IMG/VR virus record: IMGVR_UViG_3300011423_000019
Span: 1 to 36,364 of that record
Length of the DNA: 36,364 nucleotides
DNA from: a virus
Taxonomy: Duplodnaviria; Caudoviricetes
Strand: one strand, 5' to 3'
Both the position numbers and the translations under genes were made by a program. The notes beneath the pieces are model-generated. The model was not told the DNA's origin. It searched no databases and saw only the letters and a list, made by a program, of their open reading frames with translations. Shown one piece after another: positions 4,828 to 35,679 of the stretch (positions within the stretch are counted from its first letter, which is position 1; every line of letters begins with the position of its first letter).

Positions 4828-5492
4828 CAATGCACCGGCCAGAGAGCGCGCGCGGCATCCAGTCGCCGTACGAGTTCCTCGCTCGCCAACACCTGCCGTT
4901 GGACGGTGGCTTCTTCCTCGCACTTCGCCGCGAGAATCGGCACACCCGTGCGAAACGACTCCTCGACTTCTGCCCGCGTCGCCGGTCGCCCGCAGCTCCA
5001 CCACTCGACGGCATCGGCCGGGCCGATCTCGATCAGCGGTCGCCCGCGGCCGTCGTTGAACACGCGAAACGAGCGCGTCACCCAGACCAGTCCGACACCG
5101 GGGTTGCGATCTATCGGGAACCCGGCGCCAGGCCCCGCGTCTTCGGGCAGACCGCCTTCGCGGCGCACCATGTGCGGCCTGGACATGAACGGGCAGTTGC
5201 GCGCGCTCCAGTTCGCACATTCGCGGTGACAGGCTGGCTCCGACGTGGTGCGGTTGATGGCGCACATCGGGCCGATCAGAAACGCGAGCCACTGGCCGAG
5301 CGGTTCGCCGCACACCCAGCAGCGGCGCTCGCGCACCGCTCTGAGCCACTTCGCCGGGTCCATGCAGCGGAACTCCGGCACGCCGTTGATCCAACCGACG
5401 AACCACGGCACCGGATAGCCGCGCGCGTCCACAGGCAGCGCCCGCAGGCGGCGAGGGAGGGTCCCGAGCTCGGGGCGAAGTAGAGTCGCCAT
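4827..5492 (-). CDS. Conserved-looking phage protein with Zn-binding motifs
   Basis: RGYPVPWFV...CWVCGEPL...EPACHRECA..SARNCPF; TGATG coupling. Confidence 0.75.
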   Translation of the reverse strand: MATLLRPELGTLPRRLRALPVDARGYPVPWFVGWINGVPEFRCMDPAKWLRAVRERRCWVCGEPLGQWLAFLIGPMCAINRTTSEPACHRECANWSARNCPFMSRPHMVRREGGLPEDAGPGAGFPIDRNPGVGLVWVTRSFRVFNDGRGRPLIEIGPADAVEWWSCGRPATRAEVEESFRTGVPILAAKCEEEATVQRQVLASEELVRRLDAARALWPVH

Positions 5493-6055
5493 CAGTGCGT
5501 CCTCGCTGCTTCCGCTGAGGCTGGCGCGTCGATCGGCAACTTCTGCTGCTTGCCGCGCGCGAGCGCCTGGGCGAATAACTCGAGGTCGCGCTTCCACGTG
5601 CCGTAGCGCGCGGCGATGCACGCGAATTCCTCGAGGTCATGCCGGCGCACGCGATAGACGATCCGGCCGCGCACATCGAGCAGCGGATCGCCGGTCACCG
5701 GGTCTTCCTTCACCGTCGCGTGGCAGAGTTCGTGATCGAGCAGGGCGTCGCGCTGCTCGTCGGTCACGAGCTCGTCGATCCAAAAGGCCTGCTGCAGCAG
5801 GATGACGAAGTCCCAGGCCATGAGTTCGCGGTCGAGGGCCGTGGCTTTCTTGCAGCGGCCGAGCGTCTGCCGGCCATCCGGATCGGCGCGCCACGAGGTG
5901 CACCACGCGAGGGCGATCCGCGCGTCGCGCAATTCCTCGTGGTGCTCGTGGACGAGGCGATCGAGGCGGGCGTAGCTCGGGCCGTGCGCCTCGCGTGTCA
6001 GTAGCGTGTATGAGACTTTCGGCGGCGCCTTCGGCTTGCGGCGGCGTGGGCTCAT
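5492..6055 (-). CDS. Putative phage metallopeptidase (HExxH)
   Basis: ARIALAW...LGRCKK...DFVILL...LLDHELCH...HDLEEF..IAARYG. Confidence 0.82.
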   Translation of the reverse strand: MSPRRRKPKAPPKVSYTLLTREAHGPSYARLDRLVHEHHEELRDARIALAWCTSWRADPDGRQTLGRCKKATALDRELMAWDFVILLQQAFWIDELVTDEQRDALLDHELCHATVKEDPVTGDPLLDVRGRIVYRVRRHDLEEFACIAARYGTWKRDLELFAQALARGKQQKLPIDAPASAEAARTH

Positions 6056-10688: not shown

Positions 10689-10934
10689 TCAGGCTCGGCG
10701 TTGGGCGCGCGTGGGTGAGCGGCGGCGCCGCGGCGATCGGCGTGCAGGCACCGGGAAGAGTTCATCAGGCGCGAGGTTGAGGGCGCGACTGATGCGAACA
10801 ATCGCCTCGTAACTTGGCCGGCGGATGCGGTGGCCAGTCTCCAGGCGTGAAATGAGCGCGGGATCGACGCCCGCGCGCTCGGCGAGCTCGCATTGCGTTA
10901 AACGCGCAATCTGACGTGCGGTTTTGAGTTCCAT
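10689..10934 (-). CDS. Cro-like XRE HTH regulator
   Basis: LKTARQIARLTQCELAERAGVDPALISRLETG; divergent from repressor, first gene of early operon. Confidence 0.88.
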   Translation of the reverse strand: MELKTARQIARLTQCELAERAGVDPALISRLETGHRIRRPSYEAIVRISRALNLAPDELFPVPARRSPRRRRSPTRAQRRA

Positions 10935-10947
10935 CGGTACCGAAGGT

Positions 10948-10984
10948 GCGCAATCTAGTCACTTGATTGCGCGTTGTCAAGTGA
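10948..10984 (-). promoter_or_regulatory. Sigma70-type early promoter overlapped by two inverted repeats (operators)
   Basis: Minus strand TTGACA(10980-10975)-N17-TAGATT(10957-10952); GCGCAATC-N9-GATTGCGC 10948-10972; TCACTTGA-N10-TCAAGTGA 10959-10984. Confidence 0.8.
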
Positions 10985-11075
10985 TGTGCGATATTCCCTG
11001 TCGAGAATGCTCATGCCATTGCGCACTGCCGCGTTTCTCGTTGCCACTCAGCCGGACGGTCAGAAGAATGGCCGT

Positions 11076-11609
11076 ATGGAACCGGAAGATCTGCCGCAGT
11101 TTGCGGAGCGGTTGGTGGTGGGCGTCGCCAAGCTCCGGATGAAGTTCACACCGTTTTGCCGGCGTGCTGGAATTTCCCCCAACACGCTCCGGGCGCTAAT
11201 GCGCGGCGAGCAAATGCCGGAGGCCGCCACGGTCGCGAAGCTCGCGGCCGCGCTCGGCACGACTCCGAAGGCCCTCACGGAGGGCAAACACGGAATCGAT
11301 CCGAGCGATGACAGGCTCGTGATCTTGAACGACGAGGATCTTGAAGTCGCGCAGGCGTTTCATCACGCGCCGATGCCGGTGCGCCAGGAGGTGCTCGGCG
11401 CGCTACAGCGGCGCGGCCGCCGAGCAGGCGCATCCACCTCCGCTGCCGCCGCCGAGTGGATCGATCGGCTGCTGCGGCTCCCGTCCACGCAGCGGCAGGC
11501 CATCGCCGAATTGATCGCCGAGTTTGAATCCGACCGGGCCGCGTCGACCACGGAGGTCGAGGATCCTGGGCCCACATCCAAACGATCCCAGCGCAAGGTG
11601 GGCACCTGA
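11076..11609 (+). CDS. CI-like XRE repressor without S24 peptidase domain (start uncertain)
   Basis: FCRRAGISPNTLRALMRGEQMPEAATVAKLAAALGTT; divergent from cro. Confidence 0.8.
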   Translation: MEPEDLPQFAERLVVGVAKLRMKFTPFCRRAGISPNTLRALMRGEQMPEAATVAKLAAALGTTPKALTEGKHGIDPSDDRLVILNDEDLEVAQAFHHAPMPVRQEVLGALQRRGRRAGASTSAAAAEWIDRLLRLPSTQRQAIAELIAEFESDRAASTTEVEDPGPTSKRSQRKVGT

Positions 11610-11731
11610 ACCAAAGGCCCCGCCTGGGTTTTCCGCTCTCACGGGTTGAACTGGTTGACCGCCGCGTGGACTTCCCACCGGGTTCGCGCGGGTCGGAGGG
11701 TGAGGGCGACGGGAAAGGGTGGTTGACGTTT

Positions 11732-11983
11732 ATGAGTCGCACGCTCAGATTTCCGCGTCGTTCGTCGTCCCCTCGGCGGCCTGCTGCCAGTGCGCCCCCG
11801 CGCGCGGCCGACGTGCTGCAGAAGATCGAATCCCTCGCCCGCGTCCGACCGGCGGCCCTGAAAGTCCTGGGTCGCATCGCCGACGCGCTGCTCCAACAGC
11901 CCCCACTGGCTCGCACAGGGACCGCGCCGGAACTCGCCCGCGCCGTGTTTCTCCAGGGCCGCCACCCCGCCGATCGCGAATGA
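11732..11983 (+). CDS. Hypothetical protein
   Basis: Stop overlaps next ATG (ATGA). Confidence 0.55.
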   Translation: MSRTLRFPRRSSSPRRPAASAPPRAADVLQKIESLARVRPAALKVLGRIADALLQQPPLARTGTAPELARAVFLQGRHPADRE

Positions 11984-12186
11984 ACTGGTTCGAGAGAACG
12001 CGACAGGAGTGGATCGCCGAGATGCTGCGGGTCTACGGGTTCATCAACCGCAAGCACCTGATGCTGAAGTTCGACATCTCGCAGCCCCAGGCGTCGAAGG
12101 ACCTGCAAACATTCCTGCGCGATCACCCAGGCGCGATGCGCTACGACCTCACGTGGAAGCATTACGAGCGCACGGGGACATCGTGA
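11980..12186 (+). CDS. Stand-alone winged-helix protein resembling the CapW/BrxR N-terminal DNA-binding domain
   Basis: RQEWIAEMLRVYGFINRKHLMLKFDISQPQASKDLQTF...AMRYDLTWKHY. Confidence 0.72.
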   Translation: MNWFERTRQEWIAEMLRVYGFINRKHLMLKFDISQPQASKDLQTFLRDHPGAMRYDLTWKHYERTGTS

Positions 12187-12701
12187 GGGGCCCGAGCTAT
12201 CGGGTGGACACGATCGACGGCCGGCCGCTGATCGTCTGCCTGCTCTGCGATGCGATCAGCCATCACCCGGGCGACGTGACCAACCGCTACTGCGGCCGGT
12301 GTCACGTGTTCCACGAGATGGTCGCCGAGGGCCGGCGCCTCGTCGCGGCGGGCGGCACGCACGAGTGCGAGGAATGGCGCACGTTCCGCGGCCGCTGCGC
12401 CCTCTGCGATCGCGGGGTAGCGACCAAGGCCGGCACCTTCTACGGGCGCGAAACCCGGACGGGCCGGCTCCTCGAGTTGGCGCCCGAGGAAGTCGCGAAA
12501 CTCGCGCGGCCGCCGGACACCGTGATCTGCCGGCGCGTCGCCGACTATGCCGGCGGGCGCGTGCCGGCCGGCGCCGCGATCGGCGCCTGCGCGACGTGCG
12601 GCGCCGCGATCGCCTTCAACCCCGCGAAGTTTCCTGAGCGTCCGCACGTCTGTATGCAGTGCGGCGGCATCGCGCCGCTCCCCTATCCGGAGGGCCGGTG
12701 A
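12183..12701 (+). CDS. Multi-zinc-finger protein
   Basis: CLLC, YCGRCH, HEC, CALC, CATC, CMQC; GTGA overlaps. Confidence 0.7.
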   Translation: MRGPSYRVDTIDGRPLIVCLLCDAISHHPGDVTNRYCGRCHVFHEMVAEGRRLVAAGGTHECEEWRTFRGRCALCDRGVATKAGTFYGRETRTGRLLELAPEEVAKLARPPDTVICRRVADYAGGRVPAGAAIGACATCGAAIAFNPAKFPERPHVCMQCGGIAPLPYPEGR

Positions 12702-13087
12702 GCACGATCTATCCGACCCATTCCTGCTTCGATGACGTGCTCGAACATCAGACCGCGCTCGCCGGGAGCGACCCCGAGGCCTGCGCGCGGCAGCGGATCG
12801 TCCACGGCATCTGTCTGGCGCCGGAGGGCCCGCACGCGGGCGAGCCCTTCGCCCACGCCTGGGTGGAAGACGGGGAACTGCTCTATCAGTCGGGCCTGCT
12901 CGAAGGCGGCGTCAAGGTGTGGTTCGCGGTCGATCGCGCCACGTGGTACGCCGCCCTGCGCGTCCAGGCGGCCACCCACTACACGTTCGAGCAGGCGCAC
13001 GCCCTCAACTGGCAGCATGAACACTACGGGCCGTGGGTGCCCGCCTATCGCGCCCTGTGCGGCCGCGGGGACCGGCGGGTCTTCTGA
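12698..13087 (+). CDS. Putative transglutaminase/papain-like cysteine enzyme
   Basis: HSCFDD...IVHG...FAHAWVEDG (C-H-E triad pattern). Confidence 0.6.
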   Translation: MSTIYPTHSCFDDVLEHQTALAGSDPEACARQRIVHGICLAPEGPHAGEPFAHAWVEDGELLYQSGLLEGGVKVWFAVDRATWYAALRVQAATHYTFEQAHALNWQHEHYGPWVPAYRALCGRGDRRVF

Positions 13088-13365
13088 TGACGCCCGATAC
13101 CGTGGCGGGGATCTGCTTGTGCATCGCGGCCCTTGCGAACCTGGGCGCGTCCCTCCTGTCCGTCCGCCTCTCGCGCCGGGCCCGCCGCGCGGTCGATGAC
13201 ACGTTCTCGATCAAGGAACAGTTCGGGCGCGTGATTGCGTTCGCCGCGTTCTGCACCACGAGGGAGTCCGGCGCGCCGCCGCGGTTGCGCGCGATGGCGC
13301 GCGAGGCGCTGCCGCCGGGCACGACGGTCACGGTGGAACACGACGGCGAGGAACGGGTGCATTGA
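13087..13365 (+). CDS. Small membrane protein
   Basis: N-terminal hydrophobic helix; TGATG coupling. Confidence 0.6.
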   Translation: MTPDTVAGICLCIAALANLGASLLSVRLSRRARRAVDDTFSIKEQFGRVIAFAAFCTTRESGAPPRLRAMAREALPPGTTVTVEHDGEERVH

Positions 13366-13368
13366 CGG

Positions 13369-13650
13369 ATGGCGGTCCTGATACCTGCGAGCGGAGAGCC
13401 GCGCGAAATCTCGCCGGGCAACGGCCGCGAGTTCACGCTCGAAGAACTGCAAGGGATCGTGGGCGGGTATATCGAAGGCCTCCGCGCGCCAGATGGCCGG
13501 TGGCTCTATGTGAACGAAGACGGCCAGCGCCTCGACCTCCCGTACAACCAGGGCGCCACGCTGCTCATGATCTCTCGGCTTCAGTTCGGCGACTTCATCG
13601 TGGGCGACGTGGTGCTCTGCTCCCCCATCGAGGCCGGCGCGGATGCCTGA
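13369..13650 (+). CDS. DUF3846-like protein
   Basis: TLEELQGIVGGYIE...YVNEDG...LPYNQGAT...IVGDVVL. Confidence 0.85.
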   Translation: MAVLIPASGEPREISPGNGREFTLEELQGIVGGYIEGLRAPDGRWLYVNEDGQRLDLPYNQGATLLMISRLQFGDFIVGDVVLCSPIEAGADA

Positions 13651-13897
13651 CCTGCCCACCTATTGCGCGTGGTGCGGCGCCTATCTCCAGGGCGGAGCCA
13701 CGCAGCACGCGCCGGACTGTTGGGTGCCGCTGCTCCCGACGGCATGGCTCAACACCGAGCCGCTCGGCGTGTCGCCGATCGCCGCGCTGCGAAGGGCCAT
13801 GGCGGCCGACTGCGCGTGCCGCACGTGCGGCCACCGCGCCGGCTCGCATATCTGCGGCTCGTGCTTCGAGTGCGGCCGTGAGGGCTGCTGGTCATGA
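13643..13897 (+). CDS. Small Cys/His-rich zinc-finger protein
   Basis: CAWC...HAPDC; CACRTCGH...HICGSCFECGREGC. Confidence 0.6.
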   Translation: MPDLPTYCAWCGAYLQGGATQHAPDCWVPLLPTAWLNTEPLGVSPIAALRRAMAADCACRTCGHRAGSHICGSCFECGREGCWS

Positions 13898-14202
13898 CCG
13901 AGAGGGAGGGTGACGGGATGGCCGACCCAGACGACGCCGCGATCGTGGAACGGATGGCCGACGAACTCCGGCGCGCGCCGATCATGGAGGTCGGCTTCCT
14001 GCCGGCGACGGTGTTCCAACTCGTGGCGCTGGTGCAACTGGCGTTGCGGCATCCCGATCTGTCACCGACCGTGCGCGAGGTCGGCGAGAAGTTCGTCGCC
14101 GCCGCCTGGGCGCACTATGCCGACTGTCCGACCGTCCGCACGATCATCGAGCGGGGGAATGATCCAAGGCAGGATCGGCCGGCGAAGTCTCGGGAATCGT
14201 GA
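13894..14202 (+). CDS. Hypothetical protein
   Basis: ATGA overlap (alternative start 13918 with GGAGG); LVALVQLALRHP. Confidence 0.7.
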   Translation: MTEREGDGMADPDDAAIVERMADELRRAPIMEVGFLPATVFQLVALVQLALRHPDLSPTVREVGEKFVAAAWAHYADCPTVRTIIERGNDPRQDRPAKSRES

Positions 14203-31248: not shown

Positions 31249-31486
31249 CTGATGCCGTTCCGATGCCGTTCCCGCACGCGAACGTAGCAGAAAGCGGCAG
31301 AAAGCCGCAGGTAGCTGCGGCCTCCGATCATTGGGTTTTCTTAATGTTTGGAGGGAAAAGTGGTCGGGGCGAAAGGATTTGAACCTTCGACCCCTCGGTC
31401 CCGAACCGAGAGGCCACCATGCCTTATCCCCTGTGCATTCGCGCTTTTCCATAATCTGATGCCGTTCCGATGCCGTTCCCACACGC
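31249..31486. repeat. attP arm-type direct repeats flanking the core
   Basis: CTGATGCCGTTCCGATGCCGTTCCC(G/A)CACGC at 31249-31279 and 31456-31486; 10-bp-period GCAGAAAGC repeats at 31287-31320. Confidence 0.85.
31361..31410 (-). other. attP core: 3' half of tRNA-Pro(CGG)
   Basis: CTCGG-TTCGGGA-CCGAG GGGTC GAAGG-TTCAAAT-CCTTT CGCCCCG-A-CCA; D-arm and 5' acceptor strand absent; 80 nt from int stop. Confidence 0.92.
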
Positions 31487-31490
31487 CCGA

Positions 31491-32906
31491 TCATCGGCGA
31501 GAGAGGCCGGCAGCAGCGGCCAGTTGCCGGCCGCGTCGGGCGTGGAAGTAGAGCCGCGTCGTTTCCAAATCCTTGTGCCGGGCGAGCTCCTGGGCGAGGA
31601 CCGGGTCGCCGGTCTGCTCGGCCACCCGAGAGATGTACTCGTGCCGCGCGGTGTGCCACACGAGGCCGACCGCCCGCCCGTACGTCAGGCCGGCCGCGGC
31701 GAACAGGGCGCGCCACATCCGGCGGAACCCTTTCTGCGGCCGGCCATCCTCGGCGCCCCAGATGAAGCTGCGCCCCTCGGGGTGGCCCTTCAACTGAAAC
31801 CGGCGCCGTTCGAGCATCGCCACCGCGCGCGGCGTGGCGAGGAAGACCGTCTCCGGTTTGCCCGATCGCGCGCCGCCCTTCGTGATGTCCGGCGGCAGCG
31901 TGATCTCGTACCCGCTCACCTCGGCGCCGTCGATGGTCGCCCGGACAATGCGCCAGTTCACGTGGCCGATCTTCACCTTCATCATCTCGCCCGCGCGCAG
32001 GCCGCCGTCGAAGGCGCCGATCAACCGGCGCTCCATCTCGGTGCCCTTGGTGCCGAGGCGCGCGGACTCGCCCTTCCAGATATCCCCGTGCTTGATCGAC
32101 GACACGATCGAGGCCGACACCTTGAAGGCCGCCGCGATCGCCGCGCCGGTCTCGCGCCCGGCATCGAGGCGCGCGCGGATGGCGGCCGCCTGCTCCGGCG
32201 TGAGTTTGCACTGCTTGTTCGGCGAGTAGGCCGGGCGATTGAGGCCTGCGCACGCCGCGAAGAGCCGCGCCTCCGCGTCTTCCTCGAGGTGCCGCTGCCG
32301 GAAGTGTTCAGGCTGCGCGGCCACCCGGCGCTCGATGCCGGCGATCGGATTCGTGGCCATGCGCGGCGCATTGTTGGCGCGCCAGACGGTGGCCTTGTCA
32401 CACACCGTGAACAGCAGATCGCGGTACGCGTTCCACGTCTTCGCCTTCCACTTCCGGCGCTTGCCCTCCGCATCGAGCCAGTCCTCGATCGCGCGCGGGT
32501 TCGCGACCATATCCTCCAGCGCCATGCGGCCGAGGGCGCCGCCGCCCAGGACGCCGAGCATCGGATAGAGGCCGTCCTGATTGAGGTCGTGCTTCTCGGC
32601 GTGGCGGCTTTTCCATTCGGCGATGAAGGCGCGGAAGTTCTGGCCGTCGCCGAGGGGTGCGCGCTCGCCGGCCGGATCGAAGTCGCGCGCATCGATCGCG
32701 GCCTTCATCCGGGTGAACACCACGAGGGCCGCGGCGCGATTGCGCGGATCGATCTCGGCGCCGGCCCACTTCGCCAGCACCACGATGCGCTTCTTATGGC
32801 GGCCGGTCCATGCGCAGCGGCATCGCGCGGGGTCGCGGCGATTCGCGCAGTCCGCCACGTGCTTCTTCACGAGGCCGCGTTCGCCGGATGCGGATCGTCG
32901 GGGCAT
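31491..32906 (-). CDS. int: Tyrosine integrase
   Basis: GGLRAGE, ITKGG, WHTARH, LARHKDLETTRLY (R-K-H-R-H-Y). Confidence 0.95.
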   Translation of the reverse strand: MPRRSASGERGLVKKHVADCANRRDPARCRCAWTGRHKKRIVVLAKWAGAEIDPRNRAAALVVFTRMKAAIDARDFDPAGERAPLGDGQNFRAFIAEWKSRHAEKHDLNQDGLYPMLGVLGGGALGRMALEDMVANPRAIEDWLDAEGKRRKWKAKTWNAYRDLLFTVCDKATVWRANNAPRMATNPIAGIERRVAAQPEHFRQRHLEEDAEARLFAACAGLNRPAYSPNKQCKLTPEQAAAIRARLDAGRETGAAIAAAFKVSASIVSSIKHGDIWKGESARLGTKGTEMERRLIGAFDGGLRAGEMMKVKIGHVNWRIVRATIDGAEVSGYEITLPPDITKGGARSGKPETVFLATPRAVAMLERRRFQLKGHPEGRSFIWGAEDGRPQKGFRRMWRALFAAAGLTYGRAVGLVWHTARHEYISRVAEQTGDPVLAQELARHKDLETTRLYFHARRGRQLAAAAGLSRR

Positions 32907-32911
32907 TGGCG

Positions 32912-33280
32912 TTACTTTCCTTCCCGGGGCTTTCGCGTGACCGCTTTCGCGCGGCCGCGCTCGGGTTCCCGATCGAGGTCCTCAAGAGCCCACCGAAGCG
33001 TTGCGGCCGCGAGGTGGCGAACAAAGACCGCGCGCTCGGCTGCGGTCATCCGGTGAATCGCGACCGTGCGGTTCTGAACCGCGACGATGCGCTTCGGGCC
33101 GTGGCCCTTCCCGGCGCGTTTCTTTTGCATCGCGCGCAGCTGCTCCGGCGTGGCCTCGGGGATATCCGAGAAATCGATCTCCGAGTCAGGCGGTTGCGGC
33201 AACCGCAGCCGGGCCATCCGGGCCCGTTCAGCGGCGGTCAGGCGATACTGCACGGTCGTAGGGGTTCGCTTCGCCTTCAT
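32912..33280 (-). CDS. Chimeric protein with BrnA-like antitoxin N-terminus
   Basis: PDSEIDFSDIPEATPEQLRAM motif; internal repeat RLTAAERA/RMTAAERA; ATGA-coupled to brnA. Confidence 0.6.
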   Translation of the reverse strand: MKAKRTPTTVQYRLTAAERARMARLRLPQPPDSEIDFSDIPEATPEQLRAMQKKRAGKGHGPKRIVAVQNRTVAIHRMTAAERAVFVRHLAAATLRWALEDLDREPERGRAKAVTRKPREGK

Positions 33281-33609
33281 GCGCGCGCCCTTTGATTGCG
33301 GCGGGTCGCTCCGGCCTTCCGGCGCGTGGCCGGCTTGCGCAGGCGCCGCGCCACCAGGCGCGCCAGATCTGCGTTCATCCGCGTTTGCCACCCGGGCCCG
33401 CTGGCGCGGTAGTGCGCGAGGACCGCCGCATCGAGGCGCACGTTGATGACCTGCTTGGTTGGGGTCTTCTGCGGGCCGCGGCCGCGGCGCTTGGCCTCGG
33501 CGAGCGCGGCCTGTAGGCCGGCGCTATCGGCCATGTCAGGGATCCGCACGGCGCGGGCGAAGGCCTCGCTCGGGATCGGCGGATTGTCAGCGTCGTACTG
33601 GATAGGCAC
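33277..33609 (-). CDS. brnA: BrnA antitoxin
   Basis: DNPP...RGRGPQKTPTKQVINVRLDAAVLAHYRASGPGWQTRMN. Confidence 0.92.
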   Translation of the reverse strand: MPIQYDADNPPIPSEAFARAVRIPDMADSAGLQAALAEAKRRGRGPQKTPTKQVINVRLDAAVLAHYRASGPGWQTRMNADLARLVARRLRKPATRRKAGATRRNQRARA

Positions 33610-33850
33610 GGGCGTAGTCCTTTTGTTCGCGGCGATTCGCAGGCCGCAAGCTAATCTCGCGGATCCCGCCCTCGCGGTTGGCAATGACGCCCGCGTGCAA
33701 CCGGCCATCGATCCAGCCGATCACCACCCATCGATCCTCCCCGCCTCGCGGCGAGTAGATGGCCAGCGGCTCCGTCAACTCGGAAAGGCGCGACAGGCTA
33801 ATCCCGTGCTTCTCCAGATTGCGGCGCTCTTTGTCGGGGTCGAACGTCAT
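33587..33850 (-). CDS. brnT: BrnT ribonuclease toxin
   Basis: FDPDKERRNLEKHGIS...EDRWVVIG...IREISLRPANRRE. Confidence 0.92.
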   Translation of the reverse strand: MTFDPDKERRNLEKHGISLSRLSELTEPLAIYSPRGGEDRWVVIGWIDGRLHAGVIANREGGIREISLRPANRREQKDYARAYPVRR

Positions 33851-34239: not shown

Positions 34240-34944
34240 TCAACACTTCACCCGCTCGCCTCGCGCCATGCGCGCGCCGACTTCATCGATCGCCGAGTAG
34301 GGCAACTCCGCGCACGCGAGGCGCGGCCGCCACGACTCGTCGAGAAACTTCACGTAGCGCAGCTGGAACCCAGGCAGCAGGCGCGCGCCAGCCTTCCGGA
34401 TCACGCCGCGGCCCATGGTGCCGGTGTCAGGGATGCCGAGCTTCGCGTTGATGCGTTGCCGCAGGCGCTGCCCGGTGTTGTAGGCGAGGCCGGTGAAGAC
34501 TTCGCCGTCGACCTCCCAGATATCCCGGTTCGCTTTGATCGCGGTGAGGATGAACCCGGCCGCGCGATAGATCGTCCCGTCGCCGCACTGCGCACCATCG
34601 GCGAAGGTCACGAACCACTTCACGTGCGGCGCGTGCTTGCGCAGCAGGCGGCAGGCGACCGCGAGCGCGCGGCTCTCGGAGTTCCGCGGCAGGCGTTCGG
34701 AAAACGCCATCCGGTTCAACTCGAGGAATTCGTGCCACGCGGTGCCGGTCACCAGCGGCACCATGCGCCGCTTGTCCATCGAGGGCCCGAACTGCAGCGC
34801 GCCCTCCAGCGCACCCTGCCAAAAGACCCCGATATGAATTTGCGAGTTCGGCGAGGTCTTCCCCGAATAGTGGAGGCGCCGCACGCAGGCGTTCGCTTCC
34901 TCGCGCTCGATCGGTCGGAGAATCAAATCCTTCACGCGATCCAT
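34240..34944 (-). CDS. Mom-like (GNAT) DNA base-modification enzyme
   Basis: RLHYSGK...FLELNRMAF...PRNSESRAL...VTFADGAQCGDGTIYRAAGF. Confidence 0.8.
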   Translation of the reverse strand: MDRVKDLILRPIEREEANACVRRLHYSGKTSPNSQIHIGVFWQGALEGALQFGPSMDKRRMVPLVTGTAWHEFLELNRMAFSERLPRNSESRALAVACRLLRKHAPHVKWFVTFADGAQCGDGTIYRAAGFILTAIKANRDIWEVDGEVFTGLAYNTGQRLRQRINAKLGIPDTGTMGRGVIRKAGARLLPGFQLRYVKFLDESWRPRLACAELPYSAIDEVGARMARGERVKC

Positions 34945-35679
34945 TCACTCGGCCTCGGGTGGTTCGTAGGCCTCGCAAATCCGCGCGAGGGCGTTGCCGT
35001 TCGAATTGTCGTTGCCAGTATCGAAGGGCCCGGCGGCGCGCGCCCGCACCAGGGCCGCGCGGACGATCACCACCTGGGCGTCGGTCAGGGTGAACGTCAT
35101 CTCCTGAAACCCTTCACGCACGGTGGCGGTCCCGCCCATGGCGCCCCACGCCGAGTCGGGCGGGAACTTCAGCAACTGTTCGAGTTCGGCGGTACTGAAG
35201 AACGGCGCGAGGGTGAGGCCGGCGGCCTGGTCCTCGCGCAGTTGATCGAGGTTCCACGCCGAGAGTTCCGCGGTGCGGTTGTCGAAGATCGCGAGGTCGC
35301 GCTTCTGCTCGGGCGTGAGGCCGCGGCGCCGCACCGCGATCAACTCGTCGCCCTCGGCCTCGATGATCCGCACGCGCTGAATGCCGGCGGCCATCGCCCC
35401 TTCGAGCACGCCGTTGCCGGCGAGTACTTCGTTGCCCTCGGCGATGACGATCGACCGCGCGGCGCCGACCGCCTTGAGCGAGGCCGCGATCATGTCGCGG
35501 TTGCGCTCCGGATGCGCGCGCCGGTTCTTCGCGTCGGGCACGAGGTCGGTGATCGGGCGAATGTCATCGAGGGCGAACGCGCGCACCACCTGGGCGGGCG
35601 AGAGGATCGGCGCGGTCAGATCCGGGCGGTCCTCTGCTTGGGAGTTGGGAGTTGGGAGTTGGGTCTTGCGCTTCGCCAT
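34945..35679 (-). CDS. ParB/Srx-like protein partnered with Mom-like enzyme
   Basis: LVPDAKNRRAH...IAASL...SIVI...VLAGNG...IFDNRTAELSAWN; abuts Mom start. Confidence 0.85.
   Translation of the reverse strand: MAKRKTQLPTPNSQAEDRPDLTAPILSPAQVVRAFALDDIRPITDLVPDAKNRRAHPERNRDMIAASLKAVGAARSIVIAEGNEVLAGNGVLEGAMAAGIQRVRIIEAEGDELIAVRRRGLTPEQKRDLAIFDNRTAELSAWNLDQLREDQAAGLTLAPFFSTAELEQLLKFPPDSAWGAMGGTATVREGFQEMTFTLTDAQVVIVRAALVRARAAGPFDTGNDNSNGNALARICEAYEPPEAE
35638..35663 (+). repeat. Heptamer tandem repeat (TTGGGAG)x3.7; G-quadruplex motif
   Basis: TTGGGAG TTGGGAG TTGGGAG TTGGG inside 5' end of ParB-like gene. Confidence 0.9.

Follow-up and report, generated by a model that had tools for sequence, protein, structure and literature searches.

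The gene and its phage

The window, by which we mean the whole 36,364-nucleotide stretch of DNA analysed here, is a 36.4-kb virus record that is 88% complete. Its genes include those for a terminase, a portal, a capsid and an integrase, together with a divergent cro/cI pair at 10689-11609 (Pfam/PHROG), and by this gene content the source is a temperate tailed phage (siphophage). The tyrosine integrase (31491..32906, minus strand; Pfam), which marks the temperate lifestyle, lies beside a full tRNA-Pro(CGG) gene (31361..31433, minus strand) that is the likely attP. The 3′ 56 nt of this tRNA are identical to a locus in G340, a genome from the order of a Vicinamibacterales MAG; G340 carries four such matches within 37 kb, which suggests an integration hotspot. 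Throughout that order the tRNA was matched in 91 of 101 genomes (best match 56/56 nt), as against 2 of 41, at no more than 87%, in the Roseobacter-group family. A host in the Acidobacteriota is therefore likely, as between the two groups compared; a host search with the recombinase-like protein (0/251 genomes) was uninformative. Other modules of the phage include a BrnT/BrnA toxin-antitoxin pair at 33277-33850, between an excisionase-like HTH_17 gene and the integrase and followed by a 122-aa ORF without annotation (32912-33280), a Mom-family DNA modification gene (PF25680) that follows a ParB-like gene (34240-35679) and is a probable anti-restriction module, and a PhageMetallopep (PF18894) gene at 5492-6055 in the replication-side operon.

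The lysogeny region is organised around the Cro-like HTH_3 gene (10689..10934, minus strand), which heads the divergent operon from a promoter at 10980-10952, and the cI-like HTH_3 repressor gene (11076..11609, plus strand), on the strand of the operon that concerns us. A sigma-70-like promoter (11041-11069) ends 6 nt ahead of the cI start, so that cI is likely leaderless. A 25-bp palindrome at 10948-10972 overlaps the cro promoter, over its -10 box, and a further half-site occupies 10901-10915 inside cro; both are likely cI/Cro operators. The palindrome was also considered as a target of the protein described below, and was rejected: it scores 0 on the CapW operator matrix and is probably a cI operator.

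Behind cI runs a series of small co-directional ORFs (11734-14202, plus strand); in the gap between them and cI no terminator was called (folding z=0.64). The second of these ORFs, at 11980..12186, encodes the 68-aa protein P0001, a CapW-type wHTH (winged helix-turn-helix) domain without linker, WYL or WCX, hereafter called the solo. Translation confirms the complete gene and the residue pattern quoted in the preliminary description, as well as its overlaps on both sides: ATGA at 11980-11983 joins the stop of the upstream ORF to the solo start, and GTGA at 12183-12186 joins the solo stop to the next start. An in-frame GTG exists upstream at 11719, but homologues start at the same M-x-W, and 11980 is therefore taken as the start; the gene caller overlooked a few solos or placed their starts wrongly (L006, L007, L018 and the start of the window's own). 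The ORF 5′ of the solo (11734..11983, start at 11734 or 11813) matches no family. The rest of the accessory operon (12183..14202) comprises a Cys-rich ORF (12183-12701), ORFs at 12698-13087 and 13087-13365, a DUF3846 gene (13369-13650) and ORFs at 13643-13897 and 13918-14202, all on the plus strand.

Fold, family and predicted dimer

The assignment of the solo to the CapW/BrxR wHTH, first proposed from residue patterns, is borne out by structure comparison. At E<=1 three PDB entries match its sequence, all of them CapW (7TB6, 7TB5 and 9C5G), and its AlphaFold2 model (pLDDT 94, pTM 0.81) superposes on CapW 7TB6 with a TM of 0.95 and an rmsd of 1.1 A and on BrxR 7QFZ with a TM of 0.94-0.95, the top unrelated fold in the structure ranking reaching 0.62. 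The stated absence of WYL and WCX holds as well: the protein stops after residue 68, and no such family occurs among the 53 window proteins (Pfam). Its sequence, with S-x-PQAS, resembles CapW more than Acinetobacter BrxR, which has SRQQ.

Searched against local Pfam, PHROG, NCBIfam and PADLOC, the solo itself gave no match; the label PF26109 comes from precomputed tables and its name, WHD_BrxR, from the Atlas. The 33 further close homologues (59-82% identity, E<=6e-16, 58-112 aa) have PF26109 as their sole domain, and in the nearest Atlas clusters of this label 50-81% of the members that have a record are viral. When 1.84 billion representatives were searched by profile, 1467 matches came back, with 139 of the top 150 no longer than 135 aa (P0035, a repeat artefact, was removed). 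On the solo profile, full-length wHTH-WYL-WCX proteins reach at most 62 bits, against 77-124 for the listed solos. The domain stands alone in 57 of 58 loci on viral contigs, the remaining one being cut by the contig end, while the 27 loci in GTDB genomes hold 15 solos, 11 full-length genes and 1 uncalled. On a tree built from 144 solo and 49 full-length domains, the solo and full-length labels change 2 times, versus 43.8 when shuffled; the tree comes from a quick search over 74 columns with weak branch support and is unrooted, and no direction of origin is drawn from it. Selection on the family is purifying, with a median dN/dS of 0.33 among 1317 pairs and 0.15 among the 26 closest. On these comparisons the solos are a distinct, large, phage-borne family.

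Among the 50,697 INPHARED records of cultured phages, tblastn found no match. Six plasmid records did match, two being Phaeobacter phage-like plasmids with solos, three carrying annotated WYL proteins and one being unannotated. One of these plasmids, pP24_g of the cultured bacterium Phaeobacter inhibens (L103, 16158-20228), carries a LuxR/LuxI-like pair and an HTH repressor, with its solo (WP_102869814.1) lying downstream of these. Two phages, L036 (1327-1554 and 2334-2546) and L062, encode two solos each, one canonical and one with the changed helix SSQSAGHD, which hints at a second specificity; the Roseobacter prophages L071 and L072 have SAQLAGxD variants. Five longer proteins (P0096, P0184, P0185, P0186 and P0127; 177-483 aa) have a solo-type domain without WYL, placed C-terminally in P0096 behind an unrelated N-terminal domain.

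The surroundings of the solos are variable. Neighbourhood analysis found no conserved neighbour, the largest neighbour family spanning 6 loci, and no WYL domain among the 300 neighbours scanned of 342 selected; it follows that the solo is not part of a split gene. Most of these neighbours belong to no family, and only four gave anti-defence matches, one of them above the Pfam cut-off. As the genes of the window's operon likewise match no defence or anti-defence family in Pfam, PHROG, NCBIfam or PADLOC, the suggestion that this operon marks an anti-defence locus gained no support from these scans. In L070 a gene with a Tad2-like anti-Thoeris domain (1262-1546) lies directly behind the solo.

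The recognition helix of the solo begins at S34-QPQASK-D41 (12079..12102, plus strand; alignment to Sm CapW). Its S34, Q37 and S39 correspond to S42, Q45 and S47 of Sm CapW, and R24 (12049-12051) to R32; Sm CapW no longer binds its operator when mutated to R32A or to S42A/Q45A/S47A (excerpts of PMC9122588). Of 243 solos, 171 retain all four DNA-contact residues, as do 106 of the 107 full-length domains, and W3, R8, N23, D41, Y55, K60 and Y62 are also common to both. Away from the DNA face, E10, E13, F14, R15, W18 and D26, fixed in full-length proteins, are replaced in the solos, which fix W11, E14, F21, H26, R29 and K30. The net charge of the domain is +4.2 in solos versus +0.5 in full-length proteins. 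K40 is conserved in 85% of full-length proteins versus 29% of solos, and the helix is altered in some solos, so that solo specificity may have drifted.

How could so short a protein occupy a two-fold site? CapW and BrxR dimerise through the linker and WYL/WCX (excerpts of PMC9122588 and PMC9122589), and the solo, having none of these, needs another route. Two copies modelled together as a complex score 0.53 (runs 0.69/0.49/0.53), versus 0.00 for the best control, and 20 of 30 solved homodimers reach the benchmark mark, as does 1 of 23 monomers; the runs agree on 100% of contacts with pLDDT >=92. This predicted homodimer would form through the end of helix 1 and helix 2, with residues 14-15, 17-19, 26 and 29-30 at its interface (codons 14-30, 12019..12069, plus strand), none of them a DNA-contact residue. 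When 61 positions are ranked by solo-specific conservation, all eight interface positions come within the first 14 (H26, E14, K30, R29, Y19 and others; p=3e-5), an agreement that is not independent because the dimer model saw the solo alignment; its score may also reflect likeness to solved CapW dimers.

Operators, promoters and targets

Upstream DNA was collected from 63 full-length relatives, 47 of which remained once near-copies had been removed. In these 47 regions Gibbs sampling found a palindrome of 23 bp (consensus ATGCGTAT-N7-ATACGCAT) a short way upstream of the full-length CapW-type genes, with 15.6 bits versus 7.5 and 7.7 in shuffled sets. When each region in turn was left out, 30 of the 47 still reached at least 14 bits. 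Two of three held-out loci scored 22.3 and 23.5 bits, the third, that of a more distant regulator, scoring 4.5. The E. coli CapW probe from the literature is in register with the operator and scores 9.4 on 22 of 23 positions (p=0.007). Full-length CapW-type regulators have, on this sequence pattern, a family-wide 23-bp putative operator, and given the motif with its held-out and probe checks, regulators with the S-x-PQAS-K-D helix share one operator type across taxa. Such a consensus is useful for mapping damage-inducible defence operons. Among chosen genes at 13 loci (PADLOC), full-length relatives adjoin Pycsar/E1-E2, type I R-M, Hma, BREX, Wadjet and pAgo genes, and a Pycsar-type operon with a canonical operator is present in the likely host order. 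In four Opitutae loci (L073, L074, L076 and L078) the full-length CapW-type gene comes last in a Wadjet (jetC-jetD) operon with no gap upstream, and in L286 (3311-10572, genome G382) a CapW-type regulator is transcribed divergently from an operon that encodes two Pycsar-like cyclases together with an E1-E2 protein and a TIR effector.

Of 135 distinct solos (the window's L200 included), 106 lie mid-operon, 22 come first and 7 stand at an edge. Four that have their own promoter (L004, L229, L233 and L266) are preceded, 17-25 bp upstream, by an operator-like site, and in L276 such a site heads the two-gene unit; self-repression is therefore likely in those phages. At the threshold of 14 bits, 4 of 90 solo operon heads carry a site versus 1 of 337 control heads; at 10 bits the counts are 5/90 and 6/337 (p=0.06), and over all operon heads solos and controls show no difference in score distribution (p=0.31). 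Since leaderless promoters in general might score well on the matrix, they were compared only with one another: five of six leaderless-type solo promoters (L200 excluded) have a site of at least 10 bits over the -10 box versus none of 10 controls (best 2.9). The helix SQPQASKD, identical to that of the window solo, is found in four of those five proteins. The promoters of L004, L229, L233 and L266 are related, so that about two independent lineages are represented, and the L266 site has 2/8 arm matches. No shared de novo motif emerged above controls at 88 solo operon heads.

Near the window solo's own operon no CapW-type operator was found (2.1 bits), and across the window nothing scored above chance, the best site (3518, 13.3 bits) being coding and within a null range of 10.3 +/- 1.6 with a maximum of 13.7 of 30. 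Any target would therefore lie outside the phage. In the likely host order, which includes many MAGs, full-length CapW-type genes occur in 3 of 250 genomes; they are found in 1 of 15 solo-carrying genomes versus 52 of 301 in the Roseobacter-group family sample, and also on about 25 viral contigs. There is no enrichment of full-length CapW in solo carriers, and the target pool is small for so widespread a gene, a scarcity to be read with the caveats that MAGs lose defence islands and that a host with a target need not become a lysogen.

Interpretation and known systems

The reading we favour, to which we give about an even chance, is that the solo represses CapW-controlled defence operons of the host and is itself not inducible, a signal-blind dimer seated on CapW-type operators. 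The idea in the preliminary description that defence operators are occupied without inducibility draws indirect support from the conserved DNA-contact residues, the predicted self-dimer and the CapW-type sites at some solo promoters; the solo would work like CapW's DNA-binding half, probably with the same operator specificity. It would be a CapW-type DNA-binding head without the damage sensor, which would self-dimerise and bind the 23-bp operator. In the host, ssDNA would release CapW while the solo, having no WYL ssDNA sensor, would stay bound and hold the defences shut without an off-switch. A solo with its own promoter would also limit its own expression; one inside an early or lysogeny operon, as here, would act in trans, on defence promoters of the host or of a co-resident element. 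The benefit would presumably be felt when a prophage is induced or early in an infection.

Most known phage counter-defences block the proteins or signals of one system. A silencer of this type, if real, would block damage-induced expression of many unrelated systems (CBASS/Pycsar, BREX, R-M, Hma, pAgo) and thereby protect prophage induction; a repressor mimic would silence any system with a CapW promoter. It would directly counter the one demonstrated role of CapW induction, which is to stop prophage induction: CapW frees its operon on ssDNA, CBASS lowers lambda yield about 100-fold on prophage induction, and a sensor-dead CapW strongly weakens this protection (excerpts of PMC11662680). Hosts are also readied by WYL derepression to outpace counter-defences; WYL repressors from different clades show no cross-regulation (excerpts of PMC13622015), which counts against the solo acting on host CapW operons. 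The broader claim, that minimal, self-dimerising, signal-blind CapW copies acting on the family-wide operator constitute a widespread counter-defence at the level of transcription, falls somewhat short of an even chance.

Target scarcity keeps alive another account, unlikely in our estimate, in which the solo is a CapW-derived early phage DNA-binding dimer that now sits on other host promoters or coats DNA loosely, as a form of host takeover unrelated to CapW operons. Besides the few targets, it would explain the gain of about four positive charges, the variation at helix positions 35 and 40 and the variable small-gene operons without a conserved neighbour; a drift in specificity is harder to reconcile with a sequence-reading face nearly unchanged family-wide and with CapW-type palindromes that lie across the -10 box at several solo promoters. 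Those same palindromes, on the promoters of the solo's own transcription units in five phages, are what would be expected of an Aca-like protein that represses its own accessory operon or another phage promoter. For the source phage this idea, already raised in the preliminary description, was not supported, and overall we hold it to be improbable: no site occurs near the window operon or above chance in the phage, 106 of 128 placeable solos are mid-operon, and the 88 operon heads share no motif beyond controls. In the text available of a 2026 survey of Aca families (10.64898/2026.07.27.740549), the words WYL, CapW, BrxR and winged are absent.

Two further accounts dispense with operator binding by the solo or with the solo as a gene in its own right. 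The wHTH of each CapW subunit is packed against the WYL domain of its partner (excerpts of PMC9122588), and a free wHTH could compete for this packing surface, docking on the WYL of host CapW or forming mixed dimers and so disturbing regulation without binding DNA. Such a protein decoy is very improbable, since the solos retain the DNA face and have replaced the off-face residues of full-length proteins, and displacing a host wHTH would tend to turn defence on. That the solo equals only the first quarter of CapW, and that the short protein P0247 nests among full-length proteins in the tree, might suggest a remnant or one half of a split capW gene; the solo loci, the WYL-free neighbours, the separation in the tree and the purifying selection largely refute this, and we give it almost no credence.

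What sets the solo apart from known proteins can be stated domain by domain. With CapW, a CBASS repressor of wHTH-WYL-WCX layout that keeps defence genes silent until damage is sensed (7TB6, 7TB5, 9C5G; 10.1101/2022.01.04.474952/PMC9122588, PMC11662680), it shares the wHTH (TM 0.87-0.95, 33-36% identity), the equivalents of R32, S42, Q45 and S47, the S-x-PQAS-x-D helix and, likely, the operator type; it differs in having no linker, WYL or WCX, hence no ssDNA sensing, in its own predicted dimer surface (E14, H26, K30) and in its place in a phage accessory operon rather than a defence operon. The fold of BrxR (E. fergusonii 7QFZ, Acinetobacter 7T8K/7T8L; PMC9122589) is the same (TM 0.90-0.95), and the equivalents of R11, S37, Q40, K64 and Y66 appear to be kept, by motif match to the list in excerpts of that paper, yet identity is 22-24% and the solo has neither the SRQQ motif with its base-reading R38 nor WYL/WCX. 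Of the traits of the CapW/BrxR repressors, the PF26109-type wHTH and the DNA-contact residues R24, S34, Q37 and S39 are present, while the linker, WYL and WCX, and an adjoining defence operon with a palindromic promoter operator, are absent (the operon has no PADLOC match); having neither the sensor nor the genomic context, the solo is not a member of the WYL repressors. PF26109 (WHD_BrxR) is the domain label of all 34 close homologues, the window solo included, but this family covers the domain of the full-length regulators, and the libraries scanned give the solo phage form neither a name nor a function of its own.

Aca proteins and the host anti-anti-CRISPR copies of Aca or of the AcrIIA1-NTD are likewise small HTH repressors in phage-host conflict, in which a borrowed domain is set on the opponent's operator; we take them to be of a different fold family. 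Here the direction would be that of a phage against host defence promoters, with no linked acr genes and no conserved cis motif. The full-text literature covered, which leaves subscription papers and preprint supplements outside its scope, held no paper describing the phage-encoded solo form, and term searches gave nothing relevant in the available text of the review PMC10419184 or of the Aca survey (10.64898/2026.07.27.740549). New here are the predicted solo homodimer, the family-wide 23-bp operator and the operator-like sites at some solo promoters.
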